From Isurus oxyrinchus (taxonomy: Eukaryota): 64,000 bases of DNA. The stretch covers positions 57,598,001-57,662,000 of the forward strand of contig JANJGN010000013.1 in NCBI GenBank assembly GCA_026770705.1, in the 5' to 3' direction. Below, in pieces: positions 6,896 through 62,383 of the stretch (positions within the stretch are counted from its first letter, which is position 1; the number at the start of each line of letters is the position of its first letter). The notes beneath the pieces were generated by a model. It saw only the letters and a list, made by a program, of their open reading frames with translations. It made no database searches and had not been told where the DNA came from. A program made the position numbers and the translations under genes.

Positions 6896-7206
6896 CATGA
6901 GGCTGCTTTCCTCCTGTGATGAGCAGTAATAATCACCGGCGTCCTCCGATTCCACGTTAGCGATGGTCAAATGTCCAATGTTGGTTTTTTCGTCTTCCAG
7001 GCCGGTAAATCTGTCTGGGATACCGTCACCTCTGTTATCGGTTCCATACAGAATAAACCTTGGAGCACTGTCACGCTTCTGATGGTACCAATAAACATAC
7101 CTTTTGGAGAGGCTGATTCCATGGACCGTACAGTTTAGGATTACAGTTTTTCCTGGTGTGGTGGACAAGGAATCTGGTTGGATCAAACTGACCTGCGCGC
7201 TCGTGT
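6896..7206 (-). CDS. IGLV: Ig light-chain V exon (lambda-like), unrearranged, intact
   Basis: Acceptor tttacag|AC. Translates (Y)TSA-QVSLIQPDSLSTTPGKTVILNCTVHGISLSKRYVYWYHQKRDSAPRFILYGTDNRGDGIPDRFTGLEDEKTNIGHLTIANVESEDAGDYYCSSQEESSLM. Conserved Cys, WYxQ and DxGDYYC present. Confidence 0.97.
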
Positions 7207-7387
7207 CTGTAAATTAGATAAAGGATGACATGATTTGTAATCAACCTATCGACGAAGACGTATAAAATTTAACACCAATAAATAACATTGCATTCAGATC
7301 AAATAAAGCTTTAGATTAAGTTTTTGCTTCATTTATTTAAACAATTCTCGACACTACAAAAGTTATCAATATCTCCAAGACACTTAC

Positions 7388-7436
7388 ACATCAGGCCAAT
7401 TGTTAGCGAGAGCAGAACAAGAACAACAGTTGCCAT
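7388..7436 (-). CDS. IGLV: Leader exon of the split IgL gene
   Basis: acgATGG start; MATVVLVLLSLTIGLM + T|gtaagt. Phase 1 is compatible with the V exon. Confidence 0.93.
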
Positions 7437-7492
7437 CGTAAAGGGTGCTAATGATGCAAGAATGTTACCTTTCGCATTAGTGGATACCGTCC

Positions 7493-7546
7493 TTTATATC
7501 AGAGGTTGGACGAATAAAATGTCACCGTCTTATTAGGTATGCAAAT
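7493..7546 (-). promoter_or_regulatory. Ig light-chain promoter (octamer + TATA)
   Basis: Minus-strand ATTTGCAT (7546-7539, light-chain orientation) and TATAAA (7498-7493), about 57 nt upstream of the ATG. CCAAT near 7560. Confidence 0.88.
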
Positions 7547-7791
7547 AAGACAGCGTCCATTGGTCAACCGAACAGTTCTGGTAACCAATTGCGTGAGCCA
7601 CAATGTTTCAAGGAGGGAGGGCAATTCAGAAAACAGAATTGACCGTTTAAATTCGCGAGATATTTCTGTTACATTATCATTACAACATTTGCTTAAAACA
7701 AAAGGTTACAATATTTAAAGAGTCATATTTAGTAAAATTCACACCAGATTTAATCTGCAGTTATCTACTAAATTAATGGTCCCTTTTGATT

Positions 7792-8025
7792 CAAGCAAAA
7801 AACTGCGGATGCTGGAAATCCAAAACAAAAACAAAAATTCTGATGAAGAGTCATACGAATTCGAAACGTTAACTGTATTCCACTCCGCAGTCAGACCTGC
7901 TGAGTTTTTCCAGGTATTTTTGTTTTTGTTTTGTGAGTCATACGGACTCGAAACGTTAACTGTGTTCCTCTCCGCAGATGCTGTCAGACCGACTGAGTTT
8001 TTCCAGATATTTTTGTTCTTGTTTT
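7792..8025 (+). mobile_element. Penelope-derived mini-element (two tandem terminal-repeat units plus a short inverted piece)
   Basis: Units match the 3' end of the PLE at 34757-34910. Flanked by gtcccttttgatt (7779-7791) and gtcccttatgatt (8026-8038). Confidence 0.8.
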
Positions 8026-8694
8026 GTCCCTTATGATTTATTGCTCCGAATTTGTAACTGCAACGCATCGTGTATTTAGCAGTTTTAATCATTTAAATCC
8101 CTGACGTTGAATGCTATTTTAAAAAGAAATTAATAAATAAACGTGAGCAGTCTTTCTTCTTACACGTTTAAACAATTCAATGAGAAACCGAGCGCTGTTA
8201 TAGTTTTGTGGGACGCAAACAGCCTTTACTGATAAATTAATAAACTGAAAAAACATTTGAAGTTTCTGTTAAATCAGTGAGTGCCGTTCCCACGAGGAAA
8301 CTGTTTTCTCACCTGCACGCTCCGGTGCCCCCTCTGCAGAATGGCCAATGGATTGAATACACTTACCGGAAACAGATGAGATTATGAACATAAAGAATGT
8401 TAACTTTCCCTAAATCCGCCCTTACTGCTGGATTGCCCTAGAATCATACATTCCCACCGAAAAATGAGTTGCACAATTTTGGACTTTTAGCCATTTATTT
8501 TAGCAGAATCCTCAATATTAACTAATCTCAGTACATAGGTGGCATGGTGTTACATTCACAAGATGTTTTAAATCAACACAGATCTTCCGCTGGTGAAATG
8601 GAAGGGTCTACATTTGACGTTTAGCTTGGGACACTACAAATTCCATACAACAGGGAAGTTCTAAATGCTGCAAATGTTTAACTACTCTCTCAAC

Positions 8695-9540
8695 CATGCA
8701 TATTCCTTATCTTGTTGTGTCATTAAATATTGTAAAACCACTGGGCTGCATTTCTCGCTTGGGAAGCACACAAAAAAGCATCACAGACATCTAGCTTTTA
8801 AATTGAACAAACCATTTCAGTGATTCTCTGTGTAACTTCTACAGATTATAGGTTTTAGTGCATCAGAGCTGATGCATTTCTTCTCATATGCACTCATACT
8901 AACATTGACAAGAACTGCGAATTTGGTATTTTAAAGTGTGTAGCAGCATCATTATTTTCACACAGTTGACATCTGCGAATGTTTCATGTTTCGCTTGCAA
9001 AACCTATGGCTCATTTGTTGCAATTGGATCCATTCTTAGGATGGGGAATCCCCGCACAACATCTGCTCAGAGATAAGCAATACATTCAGGTTCTGGTAAA
9101 GTAGCCCCTCAAGAGGATAAGCAAATGTCGTTGATATATTTAGCAAACAAACATTCTATATATATATATGTACACACAGAAAAATAGTTTAAAGTTGTTA
9201 CATTGATGTCGGATATTCAATCTGCGTGATGCATACTGTGAAGCGTAAGAAAATATATTTCGAACTGGAAGAAAGGTTAACAACCATTACTTCTTCCAAC
9301 TTTCATCATATAATAAAATTACATGCAATCATTGGCATGTTTTGCCGTTTACGGTTGCAGTTCTATTGCCCTGCATTACACGTGTGTAAAGTCCAATTTC
9401 CCTCAAAATACGGCTACACTGTACTGGGATGTTTTGTCACTGTCTTGGTCTCATGCATATCCCTTATTTTGTTGTGTTATTAAATATTGTGAAACCCACT
9501 TGGCTGCATTTCTCGCTTGGGAATGCATAAAAGCAACACA
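8695..9540 (+). repeat. Local ~90-bp imperfect direct repeat (about 8695-8785 and 9452-9540)
   Basis: catgcatat.ccttat.ttgttgtgt.attaaatattgt.aaa.ccact.ggctgcatttctcgcttgggaa occurs twice. Confidence 0.75.
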
Positions 9541-10159
9541 AAACAACAAATGTAGCGGATAATAGACAAAGCAACCATCCAAATGACACAAAAAATCCAT
9601 ACTTGTACTCCCAAGGGAGAAAATGTTGCATTCCCAAAGGTTTGATCGAGTACAAATTGCTTTCATGGCGGCTATAGCTGGTAAAACTGCCAGTAGAGAT
9701 GTTTGCAGAGTGGGTGTGTAAACGTCACACAGCAAAAATTGTGCTTTAAAATGTGATACAAAGTCATGAAATGCAGCAGTCCTATATCGTATAGAACCAT
9801 GAGATTATCATTCTGACTCGTTGTCTGTTAACTTTGGTTGCACTAATGTCGAATTATATATTATGATTAATATATTATTCCATTATTCACGCATGTCCTC
9901 TAGATTCTTCTTTCTGTCTTCTACTCTATTTCGAAGTCATCATCTTCACAGTCACGAGCCTCCATCCGGCTTGAATCCCTCACAATCAGGCCTCCAAAGC
10001 CTAATGATCTGATTGTATTTGTGCTAATTTACTGATTTGTCCAGTTTGGATTTTGTGGGTCTGGAGGGTTGGAAAGGGGAGATTGGAGAACTGTTTCTTC
10101 ATCAGCAAAGCAATTCTTATCAGAATGCCACATTGTGATCCAGAACCAGCAGCACCACA

Positions 10160-11190
10160 GCCCAACACCTTTATCAAATCTGCTCTCAACCTTCTTTTCT
10201 GCAAGGAGAACAGACCCAGTTTCTCCAATCTATCCACATAACTGAAGTCCCTCACCCCTAGAACCATTCCCAAAAATCTTTTCTGCAGCCAATCTAATGA
10301 TTTCATATCAGTATTCAGAACTGTTCATAATTCTGCTGTTGAGACTCAGCCAGTGTTTTATAAAATTTCACCATAAGTCCCTTGGTTTTATGCTTTATGC
10401 CTCTGTTTATAAACCCCAGGATCCCCTGTGCCTTATTAACTCCTCTCTCAACCTTCCCTGCCATCTTCAATGATTTGTTCACATATGGCCCTAGGTTCCT
10501 CTGCTCCGCTTTCAGAATTGTATGTTTGTTTATATTGCCTCTCCTTATCCTTCCTACCAATATGTATCACTTCATACATTTCTGCATTAAATTCACCTGC
10601 AATAAGAAATAGAAGCAGGAGTAGGCCATTCAGCCCTTCAAGCCCCTCCACCATTTAGTGAGATCATAGTTGATCTTCTACTTCCACACCATTTTCCTGC
10701 ATCCCTGTATCCCTTGATGTTTTAAATGTCGAAACCTACTGACCTCAGTCTTGAACATACTCAATGACTGAGCTTCCACAGCCCTCTGGGGCAGGGAATT
10801 CCAAAGATTCGCCACTCCCTGAGCAGAGAAATTTCTCCTCATCTCAGTCCTAAATGACCTGCTTCTTATGCTGAGACTGTGTCTCCTGGTTCCAGACACC
10901 CCAAACACAGGAAACGTTCTTTCTGCATCTACCCTGTGAGTCCTGTAAGAATTCTGTATGTTTGAATGAGATCACCTCTCATTCTTCTAAACTCCAGTGA
11001 ATAAAGGCCCAGTCTATTTAATCATTCCTCATAGGAAAAACCCTCAATCCCAGGAATTAATTTGGTGAACCTTTTTTGCACTCGCTCTATGGCAAATATA
11101 TCTTTCCTTAGGTATGGAGACCAAAACTGCACACAATACTCCAGGTGAAGTCTCACCAAGGCCCTGTATAATTGCAGTAAGACAGCTTAT
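10160..11190 (-). mobile_element. Two nested CR1-clade LINE 3' fragments
   Basis: RLEKLGLFSLQKRRLRADLIKV and RNFSAQGVANLWNSLPQRAVEA; CR1 tail near 10600-10640. Confidence 0.85.
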
Positions 11191-11197
11191 TCCTAAG

Positions 11198-14840: not shown

Positions 14841-14899
14841 GTAAACTAATTGTGCCTTTCTCTGATCTGCTTTGCCCCTAACCTAGTATCGTGTAATGT

Positions 14900-27032: not shown

Positions 27033-30000
27033 CTGCAAAGTCTTCCTCACCAACATGCGGGCCGGGTTTCAAAATTGGGAGAGCTGTCCCACAAAGCAGC
27101 AACCTGACATTTTCATATTCACAGAACCACGCCATTCAGTCCAGACTGTTCCAGATTCCTCCGTCACCATCACAGTCACAGGGAGGAAGAGGTGATGGCA
27201 GAATCGTGTACATTCAGAATGGTGCGGCCCTGAGAGTCCTGAAATTGACTCTGTACCCCATTAGGTCCAATATGGGCAAGGAAATCTCCAGTTAAATGTC
27301 ACCTAACGAGCTCCCTCTCATAATGAATCATTACTCCTTCACTTGAAGCACCTCTTGGTAGAAACACTGAGTGCAGCAACGGCACAGAATGCACTTTGGG
27401 AAATTTCAATGTCAATCACCAAAAATTTTTCGGCAGCGCTACCCCTGACTGAGCTGGTGAAGTCCTGAAGGATATAGCTGCCACGGGCCCTATCACGTTA
27501 CCAATATGCCACCGCTTCCCTCTTTCTACTTGTCTCTGAGTCAAAGGATTAAATAATCCAATAGCTCTTGAATTACACGGAATGATGTAAATTCCGGTTC
27601 GTAATAAGCAATCTTTATCAACCCTTTAATGCTTGTTCTGCTCGTCAACTTGACTGATCGACAATAAAAACGGAAATACTCAACAGGCCAGGCAGCGTCT
27701 GTGAAGAGAGAACCAGAGTTAACATTTCATGTCACTATTATCACGTTGCTTCTGAATAATCCACAGTGCGATATTGTTTACACCTTCCAGACAATGCCAG
27801 CAAACCACCACCTTCTCAAGGACAATTAGGGATGGGCAATAAAAGCTGGCCTAGCCAGGGATTCCCATGTCCCACGAATGATTTTTTTTAAACCTTCAAG
27901 GTTTAATTAACGCAGTAACACTGTAGCGAAGTTTACAGCAAACGCTGCTTTCTGGGAGCTTAACATGCCGGGTAGCGATGTTAGGTTAACCAAAGACGCA
28001 GCTTTAAATTTAGACATTACACCTTGAGTTTCTTAATATTTTTATACACAAGGTTAATCCTGCCTCTATCTATTTCTAAGCGCTGACAATAGGATGGAAT
28101 TCAACGCATTAATTCTCCCTTTAAGAGTTTTTAGCTGTGTCGCTGTCAGGTCGCCTCCATGAATCGACACACGTCTCAATTGCGCCAGGAAAATATCTGC
28201 ATCATACTTGGCTTCCCTGTTACAATGGATGATGTGATTACCGTGGCTAAACACGGGATTCGGGCAAATCCGCTTCCAACAAGCCTTATGTATTTCAAGA
28301 ATCTTATTCAGCCTGCAAGTGCATTAGAAAACAGCCTTTCGGAATGAATTCCATATTCAGGTTTTGCCTCTTTGATTTTAAGTGGAACGCTTCAAGATGT
28401 GCCTACAGATATTCAGTTGGAGCACTGCCCGTGGCTTACAGCGTGTTCACACTGATCTGATCAAAACTTCAATTCATCGGCGTAAACCCCGCAGTTTAAC
28501 ACAATGATCTTCGGTGTGTGAATTCTTTTCTGTCCAATGCTTCCATACAAATAATTGACAACTTTTTAAATGTGACTAAATAGTGAGATTTTATTTTGTG
28601 ACATTTTGCATAATGTGTGTAAAGTCATTAAAGTGTAATCTAATCTAGTTATTAGATATGACTAATGCGTTCGATCGGTGAAATAGAGAAAATATATTTC
28701 TCATGATGAATCAAAATCAAGTTTAATATTGCAACTAGTTAAATTACGACTGATACACTCATTGTGTGACAATATGGAACATATTCCATTAGAGGGCATG
28801 GATGCTGGGTCAACTGAAGCTTTTAAGACTGAAGTGGATAGGTTTTATTAGGCGAGGTTTATCACGGAATATGGAACACAGGCCGGTAAATGGACTTGAG
28901 GCACAGGTCAGCTCTGATCGAATTGAATTGGTGGAACAGACTGGAGTGACTGAATCGTTTCACTCATGTTGCTATGCTTCTATTGGGAGAAATTTATTTA
29001 TCCAGACAGAGTTGAGAATGTGGAATTCACTTTCACATGGAATGGTTGAGACTCGTAGCCCTGATGCATTGAAGGGGAATCTTGTTGCTTAAGTGAGGAA
29101 GAATTGGGCAGGGAAATATGAAGGCAGGGCGGGAAGAAGGAATTACAGTGGACGGATGCTTGTGTGGAGTGGGAACATGGCATAGACCAGTTGGGCCGAA
29201 TGGTTTGCTTCTACGCCATGGATTCTACGGAGTGACCAGCTACTTAAATAAGACGACAGCATTTCACTGCATTTGTTCACACGAATTCATATTGACTTCA
29301 AATATCATGAAAACATGAATTTGTCTCAATCCCAATTACTGGTTTCACACAGTTATTCATCCCTATTTGACACAAACAAATAATGTCTGCATTGATTTTT
29401 TCATTAATCTATTTGTATTTTCCAAGTTTGGTAGGGCAACAAATAATTTTGTTTCGAATCACTGGAGTTGGACCCCCATTGAAAGAGATGTCCCAGCGGT
29501 GACGCTGTTTTTAAAGAAGTCAAAGAATTCGAGAGTGTTATGTTCAATCAGGGGGTACATGAATACATTTAAGTAATGGACAGCTACTAACGCACTCTGT
29601 TTTCTAGAGGAAGGTGGTTTGCAGATGAGCAATCATTGACACTGAAGTCAAACGGTACATCTCGTATAAAATACAAAACGGTAACATGCTGCAGTTTGAA
29701 CATCGAAGAGGTTAATGAAACTGCTCAGCATGTCCCTTAACTGACTCATAGCTGAGCTTCAGGAAACCGCTTATTAGTGTATCCACAGAGAGCGCCCGCC
29801 ACCCCCCCCACCCCCCCCCCCCCCCACCCCACCCCCGACCTCCCCGCACATCCCCCACCGCCCCTCCACCTGCCCTTAATGCCACACAAGTAAACGCGAT
29901 CTGCACGGTCTGAAACAATGTTTAGATTAACGGGAATATAAATACTAAACTGAATAACCAGCTCAAGATACAAATGGATCAAACCCCGGCAAACGCATTA

Positions 30001-32924
30001 TCTCACTTGCATGAATGTTTGTTTCCATGGATGGATTTTCTCAGTTATTTACATGTTGTTCAGTGTCGATAGAATCGAGTCATACCACGGGGTAATATGT
30101 CATTGTGGGATTTAGTGCAGTCGGTATGATTAAGTCCTCCTATAATTGTGAGAGCGAATAGTGACTCTCACCCTGCCGAAATGAACTATGATGAATACTG
30201 CTTAATTGAGAATGACCAGTATTTTAATTTGTTCTGGAGTGTGCGTTTACTACCTCAGAGTTTAGTTTCGTGTTGATATTAGGTGTCAATTTGTTGGCGC
30301 ACAGGTCACCAATTCATTTAATCACAACTAGCAGGGATCGCAAAATATTTGCAATGAAATTCGTATTTTTATTGCAGCAGAATGTCCTTAAATTCCAATT
30401 CCATGCCATTCCCTCATGACATACCTGTTTCATTCCTTTCATCCCTCTCATATCAGCCTCATCCCTTCTTCCTGTGTGGCATTCCCATCCCCCCACCACC
30501 CCCACCCCCCCGCCCCCATCAGTTCTTTCCATGCCATCCTATCCCCACCCCCATTCAGCCTCCTCCAGGTTGCCCCGGGCCGCCTCCCATGCCGAACCGC
30601 TCCCTCCCCCCATCCCCCACTTCTGCCCCTCCCATGCTGTCCCCACACCCATACTGTCTCCTCCTACCCTCCTGCCCTGAACCCTCCAATTCGGGGGCCA
30701 GTGAGCGAGGCACGTGCGCCCGACCAATCAGACAGAAATTGAATATTGTCGTCCTAGATTTGTCAAGTGATTGCAAATGCACTGTGAAGATTTTCCCCTT
30801 TGCTGTGGCCGGTGAACTCGTAAACTTTCTAAAAGAACGTTTCCTTCGTGCCCATGTTCAGGAGACGAATAAAAGCAAATCTGCACAAACATTTCGGGAA
30901 TCATGTTTCACGAAAAACTCACAACCTATTGTGCCCTTTTCCAAATGCATCATTAAACAAACCACAACACTTGTGTTCTGATATTGCAGGTGAGACTTCG
31001 ATATTAACTCTGAACTGCCTGATGCAAAAAGTCATGATGACCAACATTGGGAAAACCTCAGTGTTGCTACATCAGAACACGAACACCAGTCAAGACCGCC
31101 TTTGACACTATCGCATTAACTCCTCCTCACCTCAATCTTTCCAATAAAGGCACACTTCATTAACCCGTTACAATCCCAACAATACAACACTACATCACCC
31201 CTTTGTCACTACATGGAGGTACCAGTCATCACCATTGTGGTGTACAGTTCAGAACCAAATAACGGAATCGTTTCAGGTATGACTCTAACCTCCATCAGTA
31301 ACAAAGTGCAATGCCAAGATACAATCAGCTTTACTATCATGAAACCCAGAGCGCATCCAAGCAATCTTCTTATTTCTTAACACGCTCCTTCCCTGGACTG
31401 CCTTTCCGAGGTGCAAACAGGGTCTTGGAAGGATTTTTGAGTTACCACGTAAGTTAGGGAAGCGGATAACCATAAGGTAAGGTTCTGAGTTAGAATTTCC
31501 TTTAACCTGAGTGTGTTTTGAAATGTTAGTTGACCGAGTGTTGCGTTAGGATGATGAAGAGTGTGCTAATACCCGGTGTCTGATGTATTACCTAGCTTTC
31601 CCTTGTCATATTGGTGAGCTTCTTCTGGCACTCCTCGACAGTCCTGAGAGTGAGAGCGTAGGCACCCAGCGCCAATGCCATTTCCCTCCCCCGGCAAGCT
31701 GGCAAGGATGGATATTCTTGATAGGTTTATTGACGATGACATCCACGAGCCTCTGCCTCCTTAACTCATGTTTCCTGAGGTGGGCTTGACGGTCTCAGTC
31801 AGAAATTCCTTGTTATTTTCCAGTTTTAAAAAAAATCTCTGACGGAATGTCAATGCCGCTGGCAATGCCAGCATTTATTGTTCTTCACGAATTTCCCGTG
31901 AGACAGTGGTGGTGAGGAAACTTATGAACACGTCTCTGTGGTGCTATACACACACAGTGCTGTTAAGTGTGGAGTTCCCTGATATTGACTCAGCAGGATG
32001 GCACGTGAGTTGGAGGGGAACTTTCAGGTGGAGTTTTTTCCATACATTTGCTGCCTCGCCCTCCTATGTGTAGAGTTCACGGGTTAGGAAGGTACCTTCA
32101 AAGGTGGCTTGACGAGTTGCTGCAGTGCATCTTGCAGCCACAATGTGCCAGTGAAGGAGGGACAGAATGCTTAAGGTGATGGATGGAGTGTTGATCAAAC
32201 GACTGGCGTTGAGCTGATTGAGTGTTGTTGAAGAATGGAAAGTATTATGTTATAGTCCACACTTGTGCCTCGTAAATGATGGAAAGGCATTGGGTACTAG
32301 TGAGTGAGTTGCTCGCCTCAGAATACCCAGCCTCGGACCTGCTCTTGCGGCCACAGTTTCTACCTGACTTTTCCAGTTACATTTATGTTCAATGGCGATC
32401 GGGCCAGGAATACGATGGCAATCCAAATGAAAATGAAGAGGAGGTGATTAGACAGTCTCTTGTTGAAGATGGTCATTGGCCTAGCTTTTATACAGCACTC
32501 ATGTTACTTGCTACTAATCAGGCCACCACTGAATGTCCAGGTTTTGCTGAATGCGGACACAGGCTAGTTCATTGTCTGAAGGGTTGCAAAAGGAACTGAA
32601 AACTGTGAAATCACCTGTGAAATCGCCAACCCTGAACCTTTGATGAAGGGAGCGTCATTGATGAAGCAACTGATGATAGTTGGAGCGAGGCCACTGCCCA
32701 GGGGAACGCTGGCAGTGACGTCCTAGAGATGAGACAATTAGCTTCCAATAATCACAACCATTTTCCTTTTCGTTAGGCATGATTCCAGTAATTGGACAGC
32801 TTTCCCCTGACATCATTTGACTTCAGTTTCACTATCGCTCCTTGATGCTGCACTCGATCAAAACACCGATTCGGTTTCAAGGACATCCACTCTCACCTCG
32901 ACACCGCAATTCAGTTATTTTGTT
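27033..32924 (+). repeat. Segmental duplication, copy A
   Basis: Collinear with 49660-54876 from ctgcaaagtcttcctc to ttcagttattttgtt. About 24 mismatches in a hand-aligned 190-nt sample (~87% identity). Confidence 0.93.
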
Positions 32925-34437: not shown

Positions 34438-34756
34438 GCACATTGCAAGACATTGATTCCGACTTTTATGTCAATTAAGAGTGAATCTTCTTTGGCTTAG
34501 CCACTTTTCAGATCCACGGGTCTGCTCCGTCTCCCTCCTTCCGCCTTCATAGGATCAAATCACAGCGAAGGACACGGCGACCCTGGTGAATTTGGTGAAC
34601 TGTTTTAGCCCTGGAGCTGTGGAGATTGAATGGACTGTGGATGGCAGTGTCAGAGGCAATAGAGTCGGATCCAGCAGGAGACGGACAACACGTTCAGTGT
34701 GAGCAGTTATCTGACTCTGTCAGCCTCAGACTGGAACTCATACGAGCTTTATTCCT

Positions 34757-37194
34757 ATAGATAAAAACAAAAACAAAAAAACTGCGGATGCTGGAAATCC
34801 AAAACAAAAACAGAATTACCTGGAAAAACTCAGCAGGTCTGGCAGCATCGGCGGAGAAGAAAAGAGTTGACGTTTCGAGTCCTCGTGACCCTTCGACAGA
34901 ACTTGATTTCGAGTCCAAGAAAGAGTTGAAATATAAGCTGGTTTAAGGTGTGTGTCTGGGGGGCGGAGAGATAGAGAGAGAGAGAGGTGGGGGGTGTGGT
35001 TGTGTGGACAAACAAGCAGTGATAGAAGCAGATCATCAAAAGATGTCAGTGACAATGGTACAATAGAACACATAGGTGTTAAAGTTAAAGTTGGTGATAT
35101 TATCTAAACGAATGTGCTAATTAAGAATGGATGGTAGGGCACTCAAGGTACAGCTCTAGTGGGGGTGGAGGGAGTATAAAAGATTTTAAAATATTTAAAA
35201 ATAATGGAAATAGGTGGGAAAAGAAAAATCTTTATAATTTATTGGGAAAAAAAGGGGGGAAAACAGAAAGGGGGTGGGGATGGGGGAGGGAGCTCACGAC
35301 CTAAAGTTGTTGAATTCAATATTCAGTCCGGAAGGCTGTAAGGTGCCTAGTCGGAAGATGAGGTGTTGTTCTTCCAGTTTGAGTTGGGCTTCATTGGAAC
35401 AATGCAGCAAGCCAAGGACAGACATATGGGCAAGAGAGCAGGGTGGAGTGTTAAAATGGCAAGCGACAGGGAGGTTTGGGTCATTCTTGCGGACAGACCG
35501 CAGGTGTTCTGCAAAGCGGTCGCCCAGTTTACGTTTGGTCTTTCCAATGTAGAGGAGACCACATTGGGAGCAACGAATGCAGTAGACTAAGTTGGGGGAA
35601 ATGCAAGTGAAATGCTGCTTCACTTGAAAGGAGTGTTTGAGCCCTTGGACGGTGAGGAGAGAGGAAGTGAAAGGGCAGGTGTTACATCTTTTGCGTGGGC
35701 ATGGGGTGGTGCCATAGGAGGGGGTTGAGGAGTAGGGGGTGATGGAGGAGTGGACCAGGGTGTCCCGGAGGGAGCGATGCCTATGGAATGCCGATAAGGG
35801 GGGTGAAGGGAAGATGTGTTTGGTGGTGGCATCATGCTGGAGTTGGCGGAAATGGCGGAGGATGATCCTTTGAATGCGGAGGCTGGTGGGGTGATAAGTG
35901 AGGACAAGGGGGACCCTATCATGTTTCTGGGAGGGAGGAGAAGGTGTGAGGGCGGATGCACGGGAGATGGGCTGGACACGGTTGAGGGCCCTGTCAACGA
36001 CCGTGGGTGGAAAACCTCGGTTAAGGAAGAAGGAGGACATGTCAGAGGAACCGTTTTTGAAGGTAGCATCATCAGAACAGATGCGACGAAGGCGAAGGAA
36101 CTGGGAGAATGGGATGGAGTCCTTACAGGAAGCGGGGTGTGAGGAGCTGTAGTCGAGGTAGCTGTGGGAGTCGGTGGGTTTGTAATGGATATTGGTGGAC
36201 AGTCTATCACCAGAGATTGAGACAGAGAGGTCAAGGAAGGGAAGGGAAGTGTCAGAGATGGACCATGTGAAAATGATGGAGGGGTGGAGATTGGAAGCAA
36301 AATTAATAAATTTTTCCGAGTCCCGACGAGAGCATGAAGCGGCACCGAAGTAATCACCAATGTACCGGAGAAAAAGTTGTGGAAGGGGGCCAGAGTAGGA
36401 CTGCAACAAGGAATGTTCCACATAAAGAGACAGGCATAGCTGGGGCCCATGCGGGTACCCATAGCCACACCTTTTATTTGGAGGAAGTGAGAGGAGTTGA
36501 AGGAGAAATTGTTCAACGTGAGAACAAGTTCAGCCAGACGGAGGAGAGTAGTGGTGGATGGGGATTGTTCGGGCCTCTGTTCGAGGAAGAAGCTAAGGGC
36601 CCTCAGACCATCCTGGTGGGGGATGGAGGTGTAGAGGGATTGGACGTCCATGGTGAAGAGGAAGCGTTTGGGGCCAGGGAACTGGAAATTGTTGATGTGA
36701 CGTAAGGTGTCAGAGGAATCACGGATGTAGGTGGGAAGGGACTGGACAAGGGGAGAGAGAAGGGAGTCAAGATAACGAGAAATGAGTTCTGTGGGGCAGG
36801 AGCAAGCTGAGACGATCGGTCTACCGGGGCAGTTCTGTTTGTGGATTTTGGGTAGGAGATAGAAGCGGGCCGTCCGAGGTTGGGCGACTATCAGGTTGGA
36901 AGCTGTGGGAGGGAGATCCCCAGCGGAGATGAGGTCAGTGACAGTCCTGGAAACAATGGCTTGATGTTCAGTGGTGGGGTCATGGTCCAGGGAGAGGTAG
37001 GAGGAAGTGTCTGCGAGTTGACGCTCAGCCTCCGCGAGGTAGAGGTCAGTGCGCCAGACAACAACAGCACCACCCTTGTCAGCGGGTTTGATGACAATGT
37101 CAGGGTTGGATTTGAGAGAATGGAGTGCAGTAAGTTCAGAGAGAGACAGGTTAGAATGGGTGAGAGGAGCAGAGAAATTGAGACGACTAATGTC
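34757..37194 (-). mobile_element. Penelope-like element (RT + GIY-YIG endonuclease), 5'-truncated
   Basis: MDVQSLYTSIP..QIKGVAMGTRMGPSYACLFM, frameshift, FLRYIGDYF..FLDL..VYCIRCSQCGLLYIGKT..LEEQHLI..PSGLN. 11-bp TSD gctttattcct (34746-34756 and 37195-37205). Confidence 0.96.
34865..34903 (-). ncRNA. Minimal hammerhead ribozyme motif in the PLE 3' terminal repeat
   Basis: AGUU-CUGUCGA-A-GGGUC-ACGAG-GACUC-GAAA-CGUC^AACU. Core position 6 is U instead of A. Confidence 0.7.
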
Positions 37195-37989
37195 GCTTTA
37201 TTCCTGTCTGGTTAAACACGAAACTCAGGCAAACCGGTTCCGATCAAGCAATTCAAGGTCAGCTGTGTGTGATTCAAACATGTTTTGCGCTGATTTGTGC
37301 CAGTAGTGTAGTTTGTTTAAAAATAACACGTGCTGTAAAGTGGAACATTTAAAATCAGAACAAGTTGCAGTTTGTTGGCTCGGTCTCGCTGTCTGTATTT
37401 TACAATGTGTTCGCTCTGAACTGATCAAAGTTTCAGTGTAATGTTGCAAATACTCGCAGTGTAATAAAGTGACTTCCGTTATCTCAGGTGTTATTGTTAT
37501 TTTCTGTCTGCTCCCCTTGAAACAATTCATAGCAAATTTCTAATCGTGACAAATCGTGAAGTTTTTTTTACCGCATTCTGCACATTTATGTAAAGGCAGT
37601 GACATCAGTGGGAATAATGAAATGATGCACCCGTAGGCATGAAAGAGATCTTGCATCATACTTTTAAAGAGAGACCAGGCTGAATTTTGTCCATGAGGGG
37701 AGAGAGCTAATCACTATGTCCGTGCTTATGACAAGAATTCACAGCACTTAATGTAAGTGCTTCTGAAACACCAGTTTACAGAATTTCAGGGCAAGTTCGT
37801 GACCGCCTTTCTTTTGGATACCGGAGCCAAACGCCGTGCATTTTCTGCTACTGCATTTGTTATTTCAAAATTGTCAGATAACTTTAATTGTTTAGCAAAG
37901 TATATTTTGGTGCAGTTTCCATTAGTCGCAATCAGATAGCCGCAACTTTAAATTGTGTGAAGCCTTTGACCGAAAACAGCCCAGATCAG

Positions 37990-49659: not shown

Positions 49660-52600
49660 CTGCAAAGTCTTCCTCTCTAACACGTGGGCTTGGTTTCAAA
49701 AATGGGAGAGCTGTCCCACAGACCAGTCAAGCAGCAGCCTGACATATTCATACTCACAGAATCACACCATTCAGTCCATACTGTTTCAGACCCCTCATTC
49801 ACCATCACAGTCACAGGGAGGAAGACCCACTAGATGTGATGGCAGAATCGTGTACATTCAGAATAGTGCGGCCCTGAGGGTCCTGAAATTGACCCTGTTC
49901 CCCAATAGGTCAAATATTGGCAAGGAAATCTCCTGCTGAATGTCACCCAACGAGCTCACTCTCATAATGAATCACTACTCCTTCACGTGAAGCACCTCTT
50001 GGAAGAAACACTGAGTGCAGAAACGGCACAGAATGCACTTTGGGAAACTTCAATGTCCATCACCAAACATGTTTCGGCAGCGCTACCCCTGACTGAGCTG
50101 GTGAAGTTCTGAAGGATATAGCTCCCACGGGCCCTATCACGTTACCACTATGCCACCGCCTCCCTCTTTCTAGTTGTCTCTCGGGTCAAATGATTAAATA
50201 ATCCAATAGCTCTTGAATTACATGGAATAATGTGAATTCAGGTTCGTCATAAGCAATCTTTATTAATCGCTTAATTCTTGCTCTGCTCGTCAACTTGACT
50301 GATCGACAATAAAAACAGAAATACTCAACAGGTCAGGCAGCGTCTGTGAAGAGAGAAACGGAGTTAACATTTCATGTCACTGGCCTGTTATCATGTTGCT
50401 TTTGAATGAGCCACAGTGCGATATTGTTCACATCTCCCAGAAATTGCCAGCTCACCACCACCTTCTCAAGGGCAATTAGGGATGGGCAATAAATGTTACT
50501 CCAGCCAGCGATTCCCACGTCCGATCAATGAATTAAAAATAACAGTAACTTCACGGTTTAATTAACGCAGGAATACTATAGCGAAGTTTACAACAAAAGC
50601 TGCTCTCTAGAAGCTTAACATGCCAGGTAGCGATGGAATGTTAACCAAAGACCCAGCTTTAAGTTTATACATTACACCTTGAGTTTCTGTATATTTTTAG
50701 ACACAAAGTTATTCCTACCTCTATCTATCTCTAAGCGCTGACAATAGGATGGAATTCAACGCCTTAGTTCTCCCTTTAAGAGTTTTTAGGTGTGTCGCTG
50801 TCAGCTTGTCTCCATGAACAGACCAACGTCTGAATTGCGCCAGGAAAACATTTGCATCATACTTGGTTTCCCTATTACAATGGGTGTTGTGATTGCCGTG
50901 GCTGAATAGGAGATCCAGGCAAATCCGCTTCCAACAAAATCAGAATTACCTGGAAAAACTCAGCAGGTCTGGCAGCATCGGCGGAGAAGAAAAGAGTTGA
51001 TGGTTCCAGTCCTCATACTTCTTCAACAGAAGTCAACTCTTTTCTTCTCCGCCGATGCTGCCAGACCTGCTGAGTTTTTCCAGGTAATTCTGTTTTTGTT
51101 TTGGATTTCCAGCATCCGCAGTTTTTTGTTTTTATCTCCGCTTCCAACAAGCCTTGTGTATTTTAAAATCCTTATTTGACCTGTAATTGCATTAGAAACC
51201 AGCCTTGCGGAATGAATTCCATATTCAGGTTTTGCCTCTTTGATCTTAAGTAGAACACTTCAAGATGCGCCAACAGATGTTCAGCCTGTCTGTTGGAACA
51301 TCTGCCCGTGCCTTACAGCGTGTTCACACTGATCTGATCAAAACTTCAATTTATCGGCGTAAATCCCGCAGCTTTGCACAATGAATTCCTTTGTGCGTGA
51401 ATTCTTTTCTGTCCAATGCTACCGTACAAATAATAATTGATAACTTTTAAAATGTGACTAAATAGTGAGATTTTACTTGTGACATTTTGCATGTTGTACG
51501 TAAAGTCATTAAAGAGTAATCTAATCTATTTATTGAAAATGACTAATGCGTTCGATCGGTGAAATAGAGAAAATATATTTCCCATGATGAATCAAAATCA
51601 AGTTTAATATTGCAGCTAGTTAAATTACGACTGATACACTCATTGTGTGACAATATGGAACATATTCCGTTACAGAGCGATGGATGCTGGGTCAACTGAA
51701 GCTTTTAAGACTGAGGTAGATAGGTTTTATTAGGTGAGGTTTATCACGGAATATGGAACACAGGCCGGTAAATGGACTTGAGGCACAGGTCAGCTCTGAT
51801 CGAATTGAATTGCTGTAACAGACTGGAGTGACTGAATCGTCTCACTCATGTTGCTATGCTTCTATTGGGAGAAATTTATTTATCCAGAGAGCGTCGAGAA
51901 TGTGGAATTCACTTTCACATGGAATGGTTGAGGCTCGTAGCCCTGATACATTGAAGGGGAATCTTGTTTCTTAAGTGAGAAAGAATTGGACAAGGATATA
52001 TGGAGACAGGGCGGGAAGAAGGAATTACAGTGGACGGACGCTTGTGTGGAGTGGGAACATGGCATAGACCATTTGGGCCGAATGGTTTGCTTCTACGCCA
52101 TGGATACTAAAGAGTGACCAGCATCACACTGCATTTGTTCACACGAATTCACGTCATGTTGACTTCAAATATATTGAAAAAAGGAAGATTGAGAATTTGC
52201 CTCAATCCCAATTACTGGTTTTACACAGTTTTTCATCCCTATTTGACACAAATCAAAAATGTCTTCATTGAATTTTCATTAATCTACTTGTATTTTCCAG
52301 TTATGGTAGGGCAACAAATAATTTTGTTTCGAATCGCTGGAGTTGGACCCCCATTGAAAGAGATGTCCCAGCAGTGACGCTGTTTTTTTTTAAAGTCAAA
52401 GAATACGAGTGTTGTGTTCAATCAGGGGGTACATGAATAAATTTAAGTAATGGACAGCTACTGACGCACTCTGTTTTCTGGAGGAGGGTGGTTTGCAGAT
52501 GAGAGCAATCATTGACACTGAAGTCCAGCAGTACGCCTCCTGTAAAATACAAAGTATTAACAAGCAGCCGTTTGAACATCGAAGAGTGCAATGAAACAGC

Positions 52601-54876
52601 TCAGCATGTCCCTTAACTGACTACTAACTAGGAGGCTGAAAACAACGAATTAGTGTCTGCCCTCCCATGTCGTGACCTCTCCCATGCTGTCTCCTCCTAC
52701 CCTCATGCCCTGACCTCTCCCACTAGGGCGCGAGTGAGAGAGGCACGTGCGCCCACCCAATCACACGACCGACCAATCAGACAGAAATTGTGTATTGTCG
52801 TTCTAGATTTGTCAGTGATTGCAAGTGCATTGTGAAGATTTTCCCCTTTGCTCTGGCTGGTGAACTCGTGAACGCTCGAATCTGCACAAACATTTAGGGA
52901 ATCATGTTTCACGAAAAACTCACAACCAGTTGTGCTCTTTTCCAAATGCACTATTAAAACAAATCGCAACACTTGTGTTCTGAATTCCAGGACAGGCTTA
53001 GATATAAACTCTGAACTGCCTGGTGCAGATAATCTTGATGACCAACATTGGGAAAACCTCAGTATTGCTGCATCAGAGCACGAACATCAATCAAGTTTGT
53101 CTTTGACACTATCGCATCACTTCCTCCTTACCTCAATCTTTGCAATAAAGGCATATTTCATTAACTCGTTACAATCTCAACAATACACCCCTTTGTCACT
53201 ACATGGAGGTACCAGTCATCACCATTGTGGTGTACAGTTCAGAACCAAATAACGGAGTCACTTCAGTTATGATTCTAACCTCCATCAGTAACAAAGTGCA
53301 ATGCCGAGATACAATCAGTTTTAATATCATGAAACCCAGAGCGCACCCAAGCAAGCTTCTTATTTCCTAACACGCTCCTTCCCTGGATTGCCTTTCCGAG
53401 GTGCAAACTGGGGCTTGAAAGGATTTTTTGAGTTACCGCGTAAGTTAGGGAAGCGGATAACCATAGGGTAAGGTTCTGAGTTGGAATCTCCTTTAACTCG
53501 AGTGTGTTTTGAAATGTTAGTTGACCGAGTGTTGCTTTAGGATGATGAAGAGTGTGCTGATACCCGGTGTCTGGTATATACCTAGCTTTTCCTAGTCATA
53601 TTGGTGAGCTTCTTCTGGCACTCCTCGACTGTCCTGAGAGTGAGAGTGTAGGCATCTAGCGCCAATGCCACTTGTCTCCACCGCCAAGCTGGCAGGGATG
53701 GATATTCTTGACAGGTTTGTTGACGAAGACATCCACAAGCCTCTGCCTCCTTAACTCATGTTTCTTGAGGTGGGCTTGGAGGTCCCAGTCAGAAATTCCT
53801 TGTTATTCTCCCATTCTTAAAAAATCCCTGATGGGATGTCGGTGCCGCTGGCAAAACCAGCATTTATTGTTCGTGAGACTGTGGTGGTGAGGAAACTTAT
53901 GAACACGTCTCTGTGGTGCTGATACACGCACAGTGTTGTTAGGTATGGAGTTCCGTGATATTGACTCAGCTGGATGGCACGTGAGTTGGAGGGGTACCTT
54001 CAGGCGGTGGTCTTCCTATATATTTGCTGCCTCGTCCTCCTAGGTAGTAGAGTGCACGGGTTAGGAAGGTACCTTCACATGGAGTTGACGAGTTGCTGCA
54101 GTGCGTCTTGCAGCCACAATGTGCCAATGAAGGAGGGACCGAATGCTTAAGGTGATGGATGAAGTGTTGATCAAACGACTGGCGTTGAGCTGATTGAGTG
54201 TTGTTAGAGAGTGGAAAGTATTATGTTATAGTTCACTCTTGTGCCTTGTAAATGATGGAAAGGCATTGGGTATCAGTGAGTGAGTTGCTCACCGCACATT
54301 ACTCAGCCTCGGACCTGCTCTGGCGGCCACAGTTTCTACCTGACGTTTCCAGTTACATTTATGTTCAATGGCGACCGGGCCAGGAATATGATGGCAATCC
54401 AGATAAAAATGAAGAGGAGGTGATTAGACAGTCTCTTGTTGAAGATGATCATTGGCCTAGCATTTATACAGCACTAATGTTACTTGCTACTAATCAGGCC
54501 ACCCCTGAATGTCCAGGTCTTCCTGAATGCCGACATAGGCTAATTCATTGTTTGAAGAGTTCCAAAAGGAAATGAAAACTGCGAAATCGCCAACCCTGAA
54601 CCTTTGATGAAGGGAGCGTCATTGTTGAAGCAGCTGATGATAGTTGGGGCGAGGCCACTGCCCAGGGGAACGCTGGCAGTGACGTCCTGGCGATGAAACA
54701 ATTAGCCTCCAATAATCACAACCATTTTCCTTTTCGTTAGGTTTGACTCCAGTAATTGGACAGCTTTCCCCGACATCAATTTTACTATTGTTCCTTGGTG
54801 CTGCACTAGATCAAACATTGCTTTGATTTCAAGGACAGCCACTCTCACCTCACTACCGGAATTCAGTTATTTTGTT
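49660..54876 (+). repeat. Segmental duplication, copy B
   Basis: Collinear with 27033-32924. Differs by an insertion at 50938-51136 and by a shorter, divergent interval corresponding to about 29750-30600 of copy A. Confidence 0.93.
50938..51136. mobile_element. Young Penelope-derived foldback insertion
   Basis: Perfect 60-bp inverted repeat (50941-51000 and 51033-51092). 14-bp TSD tccgcttccaacaa (50924-50937 and 51137-51150). Empty site in copy A at 28269-28282. Confidence 0.92.
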
Positions 54877-57049: not shown

Positions 57050-57699
57050 TCACCTCTATGTCCTATGTTACTGCACCAGTAGGTGGCAATGCTGCACCAC
57101 ACATAGTTGGTACACAGAAACGTGAATGAGATCCATCACCAGACAAACATTGTCAGTAAAAGGAACATCCTCCGGTTAAATATATCACCGTCCAATCAAA
57201 GTACTAACAATTCAAAGACATTTCCCTCCGTATCTGCTGCAATTATTCACATAAGCCATTTAAACTTCCTACTTTGTCCTTAACTCGTTAACTAGCATTT
57301 CTTGGTGCTTAGGATTGGCCTGCAAAACCCTGACACCATAATCTATACCCCGAAGGGCCCTCAGAGACCTTCCACTCGGTATGCCACACTAGTCTAGCCT
57401 TACAGTTGGATCACGGCCTAGGGCACCCTATTCAAGAGTAAGCAGGTTAGGGGAGACCGCAGGCGCTCTGTGCGCAATCGTGCTCCTGCTCCCTCTCAGT
57501 TCCTCTCGTGTTTCTCCGTCAACTGCTTCCCGCTTGATATGGTTCTGCCGTGTTCCTATTTTCTCCACATTGCTGATCTATGCGGCCTGCTGTTCCCTGC
57601 GTGCACCTCTCTCCAGGCTGTTGAATTATCCGCACTCGACTCTCCATGCTCCTGTTCTCACCGTGTTTGTTCTCCCCGTGTTTGCTCTCTCCGCCTACT

Positions 57700-58560
57700 G
57701 CTCTCTCCATGCTCCAGCTCTCCCCATTCCCCTGCTCTCCACATGCTCCTGCTCTCTCCCTGTTTTGCTCTCCCCATGTTTCTGTTCTCCCCATGCGCTG
57801 CTCAACCCATGCTCCTGCTCTCCCATGCTCTGATCTCCCCATGCTCCAGCTCTCCCATGCTCTTCTCCACCCATACTCCTGCTCTCCCCATGCTCCTGCT
57901 CTCCCAATGCCCTTCTCTTCACCTGTTCCTGCTCTCCCCATGCTCTTCTCCACCCATGCTCCTGTTGTCCCCATGCTCCTGCGTTCCCCATGCTGTGCTC
58001 TCTCCAAGCTCAGGTCCCTCCATGTTCCTGTCTCCCCATCCTCCTTCCCTCCCTATATCTGCTCTCCCCATGCTCCTGCCCACCATACTCTGCTGTCTCC
58101 ATACTCCTGCTCTCCCCATGCTCTTCTCTCCCCCATTCTCTTGCTCGTTCACTGCTCTGCTCTCCCCATGCTCTTCTCTCCCCCATTCTCTTGCTCGTTC
58201 ACTGCTCTGCTCTCCCCATGCTTCTGATCTCCCCATACTCTGCCCTCCTCATGCTCCTGTTCTCCACATGCTCCTGCTCTCCCCATGCTCTACTCTTTCC
58301 CTGCCCTGTTCTCTCCATGCTCCTGCTTCTCATGCTCTGCTCTCCACATGTTCCTGTCTCCTCATGCTCATCCCCCCCCCCCTTTCTCTGCTCTCCCCAT
58401 GCTCCTGCCTTCCATACTCTGCTCTCCCAATTCTCCTGCTCTCCCCCATGATCTTCCCATCCCATGCTACTGCTCTACCCATGCTCCTGCTCTCCCAATA
58501 CTCTTCTGTTCCCATGCTCCTGCCTCCCCATTCTCAGCTCTCTCCATGCTCCTGGTCTCT
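57700..58560 (+). repeat. Pyrimidine-rich minisatellite, ~17-nt unit CTCTCCCCATGCTCCTG
   Basis: Dozens of degenerate tandem copies visible directly. Confidence 0.93.
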
Positions 58561-58759
58561 GTGAGCTCTTGTCAAGAATAGACATTGAGAAGCAGACACT
58601 GCCATCTCACTGATGTCTCTAGTTGAGCACCTTTTTAAAAGCCTCATTTAAACGATCTTTGCATTCAATACTTTTCTATTGTGGCCATTTGATAGTATTT
58701 AAAGTTAGATGGAACCCACGAATACCAGTTCATTTGAAAAGTTGTCATTCAGTGAAAAC

Positions 58760-60560
58760 ACACGGAACTTGAGAAACTAGGGTCATTCTCTTTATAGCAG
58801 AGTTGCTCAAGCGGAGCTTTGATAGAGATGTTCTTGAAGATGTTTGATAGAGTAAATGACCAGAAACAGTTTTCAGACGCAGAAAGCTCTAGGTCACAGA
58901 ATTACGGTAGGTTGTGGAAAGAAGAAAGAGGAGGAAGGAATACGCAGGGGGATTTAATGTTCTGGATTGCAGTGGCTGAGAGCGTGATTAAAGAAGATTC
59001 AATAATAACATCAGAATAGAAGCTAAATAAATCATGGTGGAAAATATGTATGGCTATGGAGATAGAGCAGAGCAGTGTGTGAAATTCTGTAACTGCTTCA
59101 CAGAGCAGACATACACAGGTTGGGCCGATTGGGCTCCCTCTTGTGCTATATAATTTCATGATTTAGTGTATTTATGGGACGATATCTGAGACCAAGACAG
59201 TCAGGCCTCTCAGTGCAATGATTCATTTGTTATATCTGTGCATTTCAGCTGGATCATGCTTTCAAGTGTTCATAGAAGCATGAAGTCGTGTGGTAAACTA
59301 TCATATTATCAATACGGCACAGAAGAAGGCCATTAGGCCCATCGAGTTCTCTGTGCAGCAATTCAGCCAGTCCCATTCCCCCGCTCTATCCCCGTAGCCC
59401 TGCAAGTGAATTTCCATGAAGTATATGTCGTATTTCCTTTTGAAATAATTGATTCTCTCCGCTCCCACCACTCCCGTGTTGGGTATCACTCACTGTGTAA
59501 AAAAAGCTCTTCGTCAGATCTTTCCTGTTCTTCTTGCCCAAAACCCTCAATCTGTGTCTTTTGCATCAGTGCCACCAACGAATGGGAACAGCTTTTCTTT
59601 CTATACCTTATCGAAAACTGCCATCGACTTTTGCACTTCTATCAAATTCCCCTTTTCTCTAAGGTGAACAACTCCAGGTCTCCAACTTAACAATTTAGCT
59701 AAATTTCTTCATTCCTATAATCATTCTGATAATTCTCCTCCTCAGGGCCTCCATATCCTTCCTAAAGTGTAGTGATCAGAACTACACGCAACACTCTAGT
59801 TACGGCATAGCCAGAACTATATAAAGCTTCAGAATATCTTTCCTGATTTTGTGCTTAATACCTCTGTTCATGAAGCCCAAGATTCCATATGTTTTTCTCG
59901 GGATGGACAACAAATACTGGCCTTGACAGCCTTACCTACAATCCATTAAATAATAAAAAATACTAATCTGTCATTATGTCTTTCTACGTCGGTATTAAAT
60001 TCCATCCGCTACTCGTCTGTCCATTCTGCTAGCCTCTTGGTGCAGTCGATAGATATCAGCCTCACTGTTAGCCACACCTACAAATGTACATCAAAAAGCA
60101 TTCGCCCTAGTACTGACAGTTGGGAAACACTATTGTCTACCATCCTCCAGTCAGAATAAGAACATTTTACCATCATCCACTGTTTTCTGTCCTTAAGGCA
60201 TTAAAAAAAATCCAAGCTGACACTAACATTCCTATTGCACGAGCCCCAGTTTTGTGTGGTAATTTACCAAATGATTTATTAAAATCTATATAAGAACCAT
60301 CCATTGCATTCCCTTCATCAACGTTTACTGTTACTTCATCAGAAAATGCAATTAGCTTAACCAAACACAGCCTGCTCTTTACAAATCCGTGCTGCCTCAC
60401 CTTAATAAACTCAAATCCCTCCAATTACATTCCTTGTTTATTAATTCTGAGGCCTTATCCACTTTTGTTGGTAAACTGTCCTTTCTATATATACTAGGAA
60501 TGTCCTTACACCCTTCCATGAACAGTGGTGCCACATTTGCTACTTCCTAATCCTCGAGCA
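58760..60560. mobile_element. Degenerate CR1 fragments (+ about 58760-59160, - about 59310-60560)
   Basis: QHGFVKSRLCLVKLIAFSDEVT..YIDFNKSFGKLPH and CR1-like 3' tails. Confidence 0.7.
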
Positions 60561-61280
60561 TTTCCCCTGTTCATTCACTGATGTGTCCTTTGCCCGAAGG
60601 CAGGTCCTAGGCTTATTCTCTGCTGATGCCTCAGCCTGAGCCGTTTTCATGGCAGCATTTGTCAGAGTTGGTTTACCATTGCCTTCTACTCTCGGGGGGC
60701 AGGGTGAGATGGCACGTCCAGTGTCTACTTCAGCCGGAACGGGAAGCGAATTGGCGCTGTTGCTGTTATTCTGAACCACACGCTAGGTAATTAAGCTAAC
60801 CAAGCTAATCGGCCCCCAAATTCGGCTGTAGCTAGAGGGCATTGGAAGATTATGATATTACTAGTTATTAATAATTTATTTTTGGTTTTGAACATTTAAA
60901 ATATTTTATGAATTTTGCTTGTTATTTTTAAACTAAGCACAAATGGAATTTCGTACAATGTTTTCTACAATATTATCGCACAACTATGTTTCATCTTGCA
61001 GTTTGCCATAACTATCAATTAACAACTGCTACGTTTGACTCATACACAATTCATTTTTCAATACATTGATATTCTGAAACGCCTGTGACATGAAGTATAT
61101 CTCTCAGGCCCATAAATAAAACTACTTGCGAAAGGTTGCACCCAATCATCCATACTTCTCTCACAACACCTAAATCACTCACAATTCCCAAGGTTGCTCC
61201 TAGGATATTTTTGGTACTTCGCTCACACCTCAAGGTGGAATAAAAACAAAACGTTGCTGTGTGATACCTGTCCTTCATTG

Positions 61281-61370
61281 TCTGTTTGTCTGTCTATCTA
61301 TCTATCTATCGATCGATCGATTTCTCCATCTATCTATTTCTCTATCTATCTATCTATCTATCTATCTATT
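61281..61370 (+). repeat. (TCTA)n microsatellite
   Basis: Visible imperfect tandem array. Confidence 0.9.
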
Positions 61371-61734
61371 CCCTTATGCAAATAAGAGCAATGCTCGATG
61401 TCTTTAATTTTTCGCTGTGTACAAATCAAATCTCAACTCACACTATGTTTTCCCAATTTGACTTTCCACGGAACCCTATAGCCTTAAACCGCTTACCGCG
61501 CTCAGCTTTTACTCTTTATTTTAATCTTCAGCCTTTTAAAGCCCAGACTTTCGTTCATCCAATCCCTCATGTTTCACCCGCTCTCTTATTTTCTGGCATT
61601 CATTTATTGTCGTGTTGCTTTCTATCTCTTTGACATTTTATTTCTCTCATTCTAAAATGGCTGGCATACGAAGCTAAGCAAATATCAGTCAACTCAGGAC
61701 ATGAGATTCCATTACCCCCTTTAGGTGGCTGGAG

Positions 61735-61765
61735 ATTTGCATGCATGTTTAATATTCGATGACGT
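61735..61765 (+). promoter_or_regulatory. Ig light-chain promoter: octamer and CRE-like motif
   Basis: ATTTGCAT 61735-61742, about 123 nt before the ATG. TGACGT at 61760-61765. No canonical TATAAA. Confidence 0.8.
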
Positions 61766-61864
61766 GGCCTAGGTTGAAACTTCTTAAGAGGAGGTTCAGA
61801 AAGAGTCCAGCCACACGTTGTGTCAGGAACTATTTTCTTTCTGACCCTCACTAGAACCTTCACC

Positions 61865-61913
61865 ATGACTCAGTGGGTTCGAGTTCTCTCCGCACTGATG
61901 CTCTGTCTCCACA
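61865..61913 (+). CDS. IGLV: Leader exon of the germline-joined lambda gene
   Basis: caccATG; MTQWVRVLSALMLCLH + A|gtaagt. Confidence 0.93.
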
Positions 61914-62041
61914 GTAAGTACGCGCACTTTCGCTGCTATTTACATTGCTCCTATTCTGTGTGCTTGGGTTTAACAGAGTTGACTTACAAACAATATTCAC
62001 AATTCCATAGTGTGACTGGTCAATAATTATTATTTCACCAG

Positions 62042-62383
62042 GCACAAACGCGGATCCCGTCCTGACTCAACCGGGATCCATCTCAACCTCCCTGGGGAAA
62101 ACCGTCAAGATCACCTGTACCATGTCCGGAGGCAGCATTGGCAGCTACTACACCAGCTGGTACTGGCAGAAACCCGGCAGTGCCCCTGTACTTGTCTGGA
62201 ACGAGAACGATGGTACAGATTCGGGTATTCCAGATCGATTTACCGGGGCTGTGGAATCATCGACTAACACGATGCATTTAACCATCACCAACGTGAAATC
62301 GGAGGACGCCGCCGATTATTACTGTGCTGTAGCTACGGATGGAATAGTGACCTTCGGGAGAGGAACCAAGCTGAACGTGGACA
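62042..62383 (+). CDS. IGLV: Germline-joined Ig lambda (shark type II) VJ exon, in frame; C exon outside the window
   Basis: ttcaccag|GC. Translates (S)TNA-DPVLTQPGSISTSLGKTVKITCTMSGGSIGSYYTSWYWQKPGSAPVLVW..GIPDRFTG..EDAADYYCAVATDGIVTFGRGTKLNVD(S)|gtaagt. No RSS between V and J; the leader intron is retained. Confidence 0.97.

Follow-up and report, generated by a model that had tools for sequence, protein, structure and literature searches.

Introduction

Two reviews describe all lambda light-chain genes of cartilaginous fish as germline-joined, with the variable (V) and joining (J) segments fused in the genome (PMC4279169, PMC5192425). Nurse shark kappa genes (NS4) include both split and germline-joined members, for which at least five germline-joining events were inferred (PMC2193156), and in the sterlet Acipenser ruthenus the lambda gene is a single cluster beside IFT81 in which V is followed by a recombination signal sequence (RSS) with a 23-nt spacer and J is preceded by one with a 12-nt spacer, upstream of one constant (C) exon (V-23/12-J-C; PMC5985310). 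Here we analyze a 64-kb stretch of the Isurus oxyrinchus genome (contig JANJGN010000013.1, positions 57,598,001 to 57,662,000; hereafter the window) that holds a split light-chain gene together with a germline-joined lambda gene. We are fairly confident that the split gene is an intact single-copy V-J-C cluster, likely of lambda class, whose V and J lie apart in the germline. Transcripts show them variably joined, likely through the action of RAG in B cells. The gene likely retains an ancestral V-23/12-J arrangement, which germline joining would have removed from the other lambda genes of the array. We found no report of a split cartilaginous-fish lambda gene in the literature searched, which included parts of PMC12227049, PMC10751288, PMC13433984, PMC13320880, PMC3964593 and PMC2192082 and had subscription papers mostly outside its scope, so that a prior report is possible.

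Results

The split gene occupies the minus strand of the window from 3182 to 7436 in the order leader, V, 23-RSS, 12-RSS, J and C (Table 1). RSSs, the octamer and complementarity-determining regions (CDRs) were delimited by general conventions. The gene has all features of a light-chain V-J-C cluster, namely an octamer promoter, a split leader, a V-set V domain, an FGxG J segment, one C1-set C domain and spliced mRNA, and its V is single-copy in the genome assembly (G000). A convergent 12/23 RSS pair less than 1 kb apart appeared in 0 of 200 shuffles of the window. In a related species, here called organism B and ~98% identical across the split gene, the 67 nt of the two RSSs are unchanged, the intervening 186 nt differ by 7 substitutions and 1 indel, and the V end is 6 nt shorter.

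Table 1. Coordinates of immunoglobulin features in the window
Feature	Position in window	Strand	Remarks
Octamer ATTTGCAT, split-gene promoter	7539..7546	-	TATA-like box 7493-7498; transcript contigs reach 7451, 7458
Leader coding exon, split gene, 49 nt	7388..7436	-	181-nt GT-AG intron to V spliced out in X17, X18
V exon, split gene	6896..7206	-	open frame; ends 9 codons past second Cys
23-spacer RSS of V, CACTGTG / ACCAAAACT	6857..6895	-	0 substitutions in organism B
DNA between the two RSSs, 186 nt	6671..6856	.	skipped in X17, X18, X23; no second match in assembly G000
12-spacer RSS of J, CACGGTG / ATAAAAACC read on +	6643..6670	+	0 substitutions in organism B
J segment, FGxG motif and GT donor	6606..6642	-	3,095-nt intron to C spliced out
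C exon, split gene, intact C1-set domain	3182..3510	-	covered by contigs of X17, X18, X19, X20
Leader exon, germline-joined classical lambda gene, 49 nt	61865..61913	+	octamer 61735-61742
Germline-joined VJ exon, classical type II lambda	62041..62383	+	own C outside window, G000:C13:57663160-57663480
Orphan classical-lambda C pseudogene	34512..37272 (34512-34756 + 37195-37272)	+	2.4-kb insertion between 11-nt direct repeats 34746-34756, 37195-37205

Comparison of transcripts and genomic DNA reveals that the split gene rearranges somatically and is expressed. Sequencing runs X17 and X18 come from a single sample of the window's species, and their assembled contigs are spliced transcripts in the order leader-V-J-C from which both GT-AG introns and the RSS interval are absent; run X23 supplies a V-J joint from organism B. 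The X17 joint has lost 2 nt from V and 1 nt from J and has no insert, the X18 joint lacks 1 nt of V and 3 nt of J and gains 4 non-templated nt, and the X23 joint lacks 3 nt of V and 1 nt of J and likewise gains 4 non-templated nt, so that all three joints are distinct and in frame and two of the three carry four extra bases. All three DNA-like runs, X1 (possibly the source of the assembly) and X5 and X6 (two studies of organism B), instead show the split form across one contig with no joint, and it is this difference between DNA and transcripts on which the conclusion rests. RNA origin of X17, X18 and X23 was judged from the spliced GT-AG introns, as their run records carry no RNA annotation, and assembled contigs retain dominant variants only. 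Two further contigs hold no joint, one comprising C with an 18-nt loose end (X19) and the other C with 3′ untranslated region only (X20).

In the mechanism that we propose, the 23-RSS that follows V and the 12-RSS that precedes J would be brought together by RAG, with the loss of 253 bp, an event predicted from the signals and matched by the deletion seen in transcripts. Coding ends lose 1–3 nt each and gain 0–4 non-templated nt in the observed joints, additions that TdT would presumably make; the roles of RAG and TdT follow from the standard V(D)J mechanism. The octamer promoter would drive the leader-VJ-C mRNA, whose splicing is observed, and the encoded chain would be expected to pair with IgM or IgW heavy chains.

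We compared the split gene with the rest of the lambda array, which forms two blocks at 57.60–57.75 and 58.61–58.78 Mb of the same contig (C13), ~860 kb apart and with no V or C match found between them. The DNA read covers 214 kb in the first block and, in the second, 170 kb out of 184 kb. On its side of this repeat-rich array, which contains many pseudogenes, no lambda gene lies further out than the split gene. In each of the ten other lambda V exons the sequence continues directly into J (8 in frame, 2 frameshifted), and a scan for RSSs beside these ten exons found none. VJ and C are both free of stops, frameshifts and insertions in only 2 of the 10 joined genes.

Polarity and position of the split gene agree with lambda in the broad sense, as it has V-23/12-J signals and lies at the lambda locus on the contig that carries IFT81, although IFT81 is 24 Mb away and the link is therefore one of macro-synteny only. 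Kappa (NS4), sigma and sigma-2 (NS5) genes have V-12/23-J polarity and form clades of their own, outside which the split gene falls in the V and V+C trees; the split kappa (2), sigma-2 (3) and sigma (1) genes that we sampled all carry V-12 signals, which leaves the split gene as the only V-23 light chain seen. Best matches in the structure database PDB are mostly human lambda, including lambda-6, and Atlas neighbors are IGLV clusters, which back lambda-likeness only loosely. Like the type II/NS3 lambda clusters of cartilaginous fish, with which it shares a locus, the split gene has a cluster layout, a leader of 49 nt and the same V length and V motifs, yet it differs from them in that V and J are separate in the DNA of two species and rearrange, in its other C type, and in its placement on a branch apart from the classical clade of sandbar shark, horn shark, skate and chimaera cDNAs.

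Two described systems outside this class offer further points of comparison. Sterlet lambda (IgL3) resembles the split gene in layout, namely in its single V-23/12-J-C cluster and IFT81 linkage (PMC5985310), whereas sterlet joints are described as lacking variability (PMC5985310) and the joints seen here all differ. The coexistence of split and germline-joined members in one isotype recalls nurse shark NS4 (PMC2193156), but NS4 members are recent and alike while the split gene parted long ago from the joined genes of its own genome, and the kappa genes have the reverse signal polarity.

Phylogenetic analysis separates the split gene from classical type II lambda. We built a V tree from 66 of 420 V domains (bootstrap not fully settled), C trees from 43 and 29 of 148 C domains and a combined V+C tree from 28 pairs, and ran approximately unbiased (AU) tests for V on 42 of the 66 V domains. 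Chimaera genes occur in both the split lineage (99/98) and the classical type II lineage (99/94) of the V tree, which indicates that the two branches parted before sharks and chimaeras diverged. The V+C tree recovers the split lineage (98/93) as sister (99/99) to the joined lambda genes with long CDR2 that lie at 58.61 and 58.65 Mb, and rejects both a union of the split lineage with kappa (p=0.014) and a single clade of the split lineage and classical type II (p=0.004), though these p-values are weakened because the groups were named after exploratory trees had been seen. On these trees the split gene appears to be an old low-copy branch shared with chimaera, whose closest relatives would be the joined genes with long CDR2 ~1 Mb away, at the opposite end of the array.

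Orthologues of the split gene are found at 75–89% V identity in Mustelus, Hemiscyllium, Heptranchias, Stegostoma and Rhincodon, while two species of Chiloscyllium contribute cluster members to the lineage and Callorhinchus has an orthologue that is more distant. NCBI labels these orthologues lambda-1 light chain-like, and one C. punctatum protein is identical under two annotations. Judged from their gene models the orthologues are probably germline-joined, although a model patched from transcripts would look alike. A search for V-only gene models of split orthologues (55–175 aa) gave no candidate, a weak blank because such a model exists (P0013). Among the 120 of 260 matches listed, Carcharodon, Cetorhinus, Heterodontus, Scyliorhinus, Pristiophorus and batoids have other lambda models and none of the split lineage, a pattern that fits a split gene and a lost gene equally.

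Discussion

Location in a lambda array, grouping with joined shark lambda and V-23/12-J signals together make it likely that the split gene shows the pre-joining state of chondrichthyan lambda, as a preliminary description of this DNA had proposed. The split gene likely kept this ancestral state while its paralogues, and probably several of its orthologues, were joined in germ cells. Several observations count against this account. In 11 full-length orthologue models from 7 other species V runs into J with a CDR3 of 10–11 residues, whereas a GT-AG pseudo-splice of the split gene in the window would need a CDR3 of at least 24 residues. If these orthologues are truly joined, an ancestral split requires ~4 independent joinings (in chimaera, Heptranchias, carpet sharks and Mustelus) versus one re-splitting, with events counted on the shark phylogeny. 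The joints number three and come from contig assemblies of runs for which the RNA label is a guess. In the trees, union with kappa is compatible with V alone (p=0.24), and C alone rejects neither kappa (p=0.078) nor classical lambda (p=0.25); the C link to the long-CDR2 genes falls from 98/96 to 61/92 under a mixture model; the V+C tree does not recover shark lambda as monophyletic; and lambda-2, sterlet and coelacanth sequences are missing from all trees.

The last point bears on an alternative that we regard as unlikely, in which the split gene, perhaps together with the long-CDR2 joined genes, is the missing lambda-2 of cartilaginous fish or a further branch of isotype rank within the lambda locus. 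Lambda-2 is defined by 1–2 clusters with V-23/12-J signals, and its survival in some cartilaginous fish was predicted (PMC5985310). The split branch is old, low-copy and apart from classical type II, with its own C type, and like ray-finned-fish lambda-2 it combines lambda-type RSSs and a copy number of 1–2 clusters with a short CDR2 (3 residues by hand count, against 2–3 in lambda-2). Its CDR1, however, has 8 residues by hand count where lambda-2 has 5–7 (PMC5985310), and it sits in the lambda array on the IFT81 contig, whereas lambda-2 and lambda of gar lie on different chromosomes (PMC5985310). The search described in PMC5985310 found no lambda-2 in cartilaginous fish, and none of the 277 proteins returned to us was recognizable as lambda-2.

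We consider it highly improbable that the gene was instead joined in the chondrichthyan ancestor and then re-split in lamniforms, where RAG would have transposed a 23/12 signal fragment into CDR3 in the germline. This scenario would replace ~4 joinings with one event, and it draws on the joined appearance of the orthologue models across chimaera, Heptranchias, carpet sharks and Mustelus and on their short CDR3, unlike the one that the pseudo-splice would give. Transposition is expected to leave a target duplication (PMC2193153), but we found no 3–5-nt duplication at the coding ends in either species, though decay may have erased an old one; a blunt fusion of V and J keeps the frame in both species, and a 5-nt duplication would shift it. 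The V-23/12-J polarity moreover agrees with bony-fish lambda (PMC5985310), a search sensitive to close copies only found no donor of the 253-nt fragment in the assembly, and RAG transposition was still unseen in vivo as of 2000 (PMC2193153).

We give almost no weight to the idea that the split gene is a near precursor of the joined gene that faces away from it in the window, a pairing suggested by the preliminary description. The likeness behind that suggestion is accurate as described: both V domains have 91 aa to the second Cys and align without gaps at 47 identities, both genes have a 49-nt leader coding exon followed by GT, CDR1 and CDR2 are of equal length, the V motifs GKTV, SAP, GIPDRFTG and TNxxHLTI are present, and the genes are divergently oriented ~54 kb apart, with start codons separated by 54,429 nt. 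The C motifs SVSSYLTLSxSDWNS and VKHET are also shared with the joined gene's own C, although the C originally compared was the orphan pseudogene. This degree of likeness is ordinary, as 50 of 115 other cartilaginous-fish lambda V domains also have 91 aa and have a median of 45.5 ungapped identities to the split V (range 29–53), such that 47/91 is typical of any shark lambda V of that length; among 127 V domains GIPDRFTG is present in 56 and the rarer TNxxHLTI in 10, and among 126 C domains VKHE[TA] is present in 74. Common ancestry within the locus holds insofar as the split gene groups with joined shark lambda, but a sister relationship of the two V domains in the window is rejected (AU p=2.6e-7) and both lineages include chimaera genes. 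The pairing of the split gene with its joined neighbor is incidental. Genes along the array have mixed orientations, which deprives the head-to-head arrangement of special meaning, and these orientations together with the 54 kb of repeats and an orphan pseudo-C between the two genes rule out the layout as a functional unit.

An assembly artefact or dead relic, which a single copy within a repeat-rich and pseudogene-rich array might suggest, can be dismissed given the open frames, the rearranged spliced transcripts and the fact that, in two species and three DNA-like runs, single contigs cross the whole split arrangement. Linkage of the split gene to the array is likewise unlikely to be a misassembly, since in four species the orthologue lies on a record of equal length to that of other lambda genes of the same species and in C. 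punctatum the locus tags chiPu_0007090 and 0007093 are near-adjacent on one scaffold.

The split gene provides a transcript-backed counter-example, in two species, to the rule that cartilaginous-fish lambda is pre-joined, and gives direct sequence of chondrichthyan lambda recombination signals, which are unreadable in joined genes. Its V-23/12-J signals match those of sterlet, and the polarity thus likely dates to the jawed-vertebrate ancestor. With so few intact joined genes in the array, the split gene may supply most lambda junctional diversity in Isurus oxyrinchus. An old orthologous gene that seems to be split in one order of sharks but joined in other orders further offers a clean test of recurrent joining versus re-splitting; re-splitting, if true, would repeat in nature the presumed founding event of antigen-receptor genes, with somatic rearrangement restored.

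Additional features of the lambda array

The germline-joined gene in the window is 94.5% identical in V and 99% identical in C to a Carcharodon protein (P0056), and lambda genes of the window are 94–99% identical to Carcharodon and Cetorhinus proteins, which points to a lamniform shark. Its true C starts 1.2 kb past the window end and is 90% identical to the orphan C, which lies upstream of the joined V and carries one stop, one frameshift and the 2.4-kb insertion, with the 11-nt direct repeats as the target duplication of that insertion. A search for a V or J remnant before the orphan C found none. The same repeat family interrupts three classical-lambda C exons at nearly one point (window 34746-37205, L014:2560-3970 and L035:4990-5720), in opposite orientations in the window and L014, and the shared point suggests a preferred insertion site. 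Elsewhere in the window, two repeat blocks at 27033-32924 and 49660-54876 are 86–88% identical and ~22 kb apart, and a CT-rich tandem tract spans 57607-58559.

Beyond the split-gene C, 18 kb further on, a single minus-strand exon (L004:4480-4983; G000:C13:57.582 Mb) encodes a leader and a V-set domain whose last strand is J-like, with GxG, and is followed by a GT donor. From this organization it appears to be a non-rearranging VJ-type immunoglobulin superfamily gene at the edge of the lambda array; its Atlas neighbors are PD-1 and CTLA-4-like clusters, and it may be NKp30- or PRARP-like. In the second block of the array, L018 and L019 (G000:C13:58.67 and 58.72 Mb) join long-CDR2 V exons with classical-type C exons, a pairing also present in Heptranchias, Heterodontus and Hypanus proteins that likely reflects old exon shuffling or conversion.

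RSS-like repeats occur at two light-chain loci on other contigs. L024:2088-3266 (G000:C783) is a germline-joined divergent sigma-2-like light-chain gene whose J-C intron contains a 38-nt tandem repeat, every unit of which resembles an RSS with a 13-nt spacer, and L025:1733-2465 (G000:C16) is a tandem repeat of RSS-like 23-spacer units between V and J of a kappa cluster.

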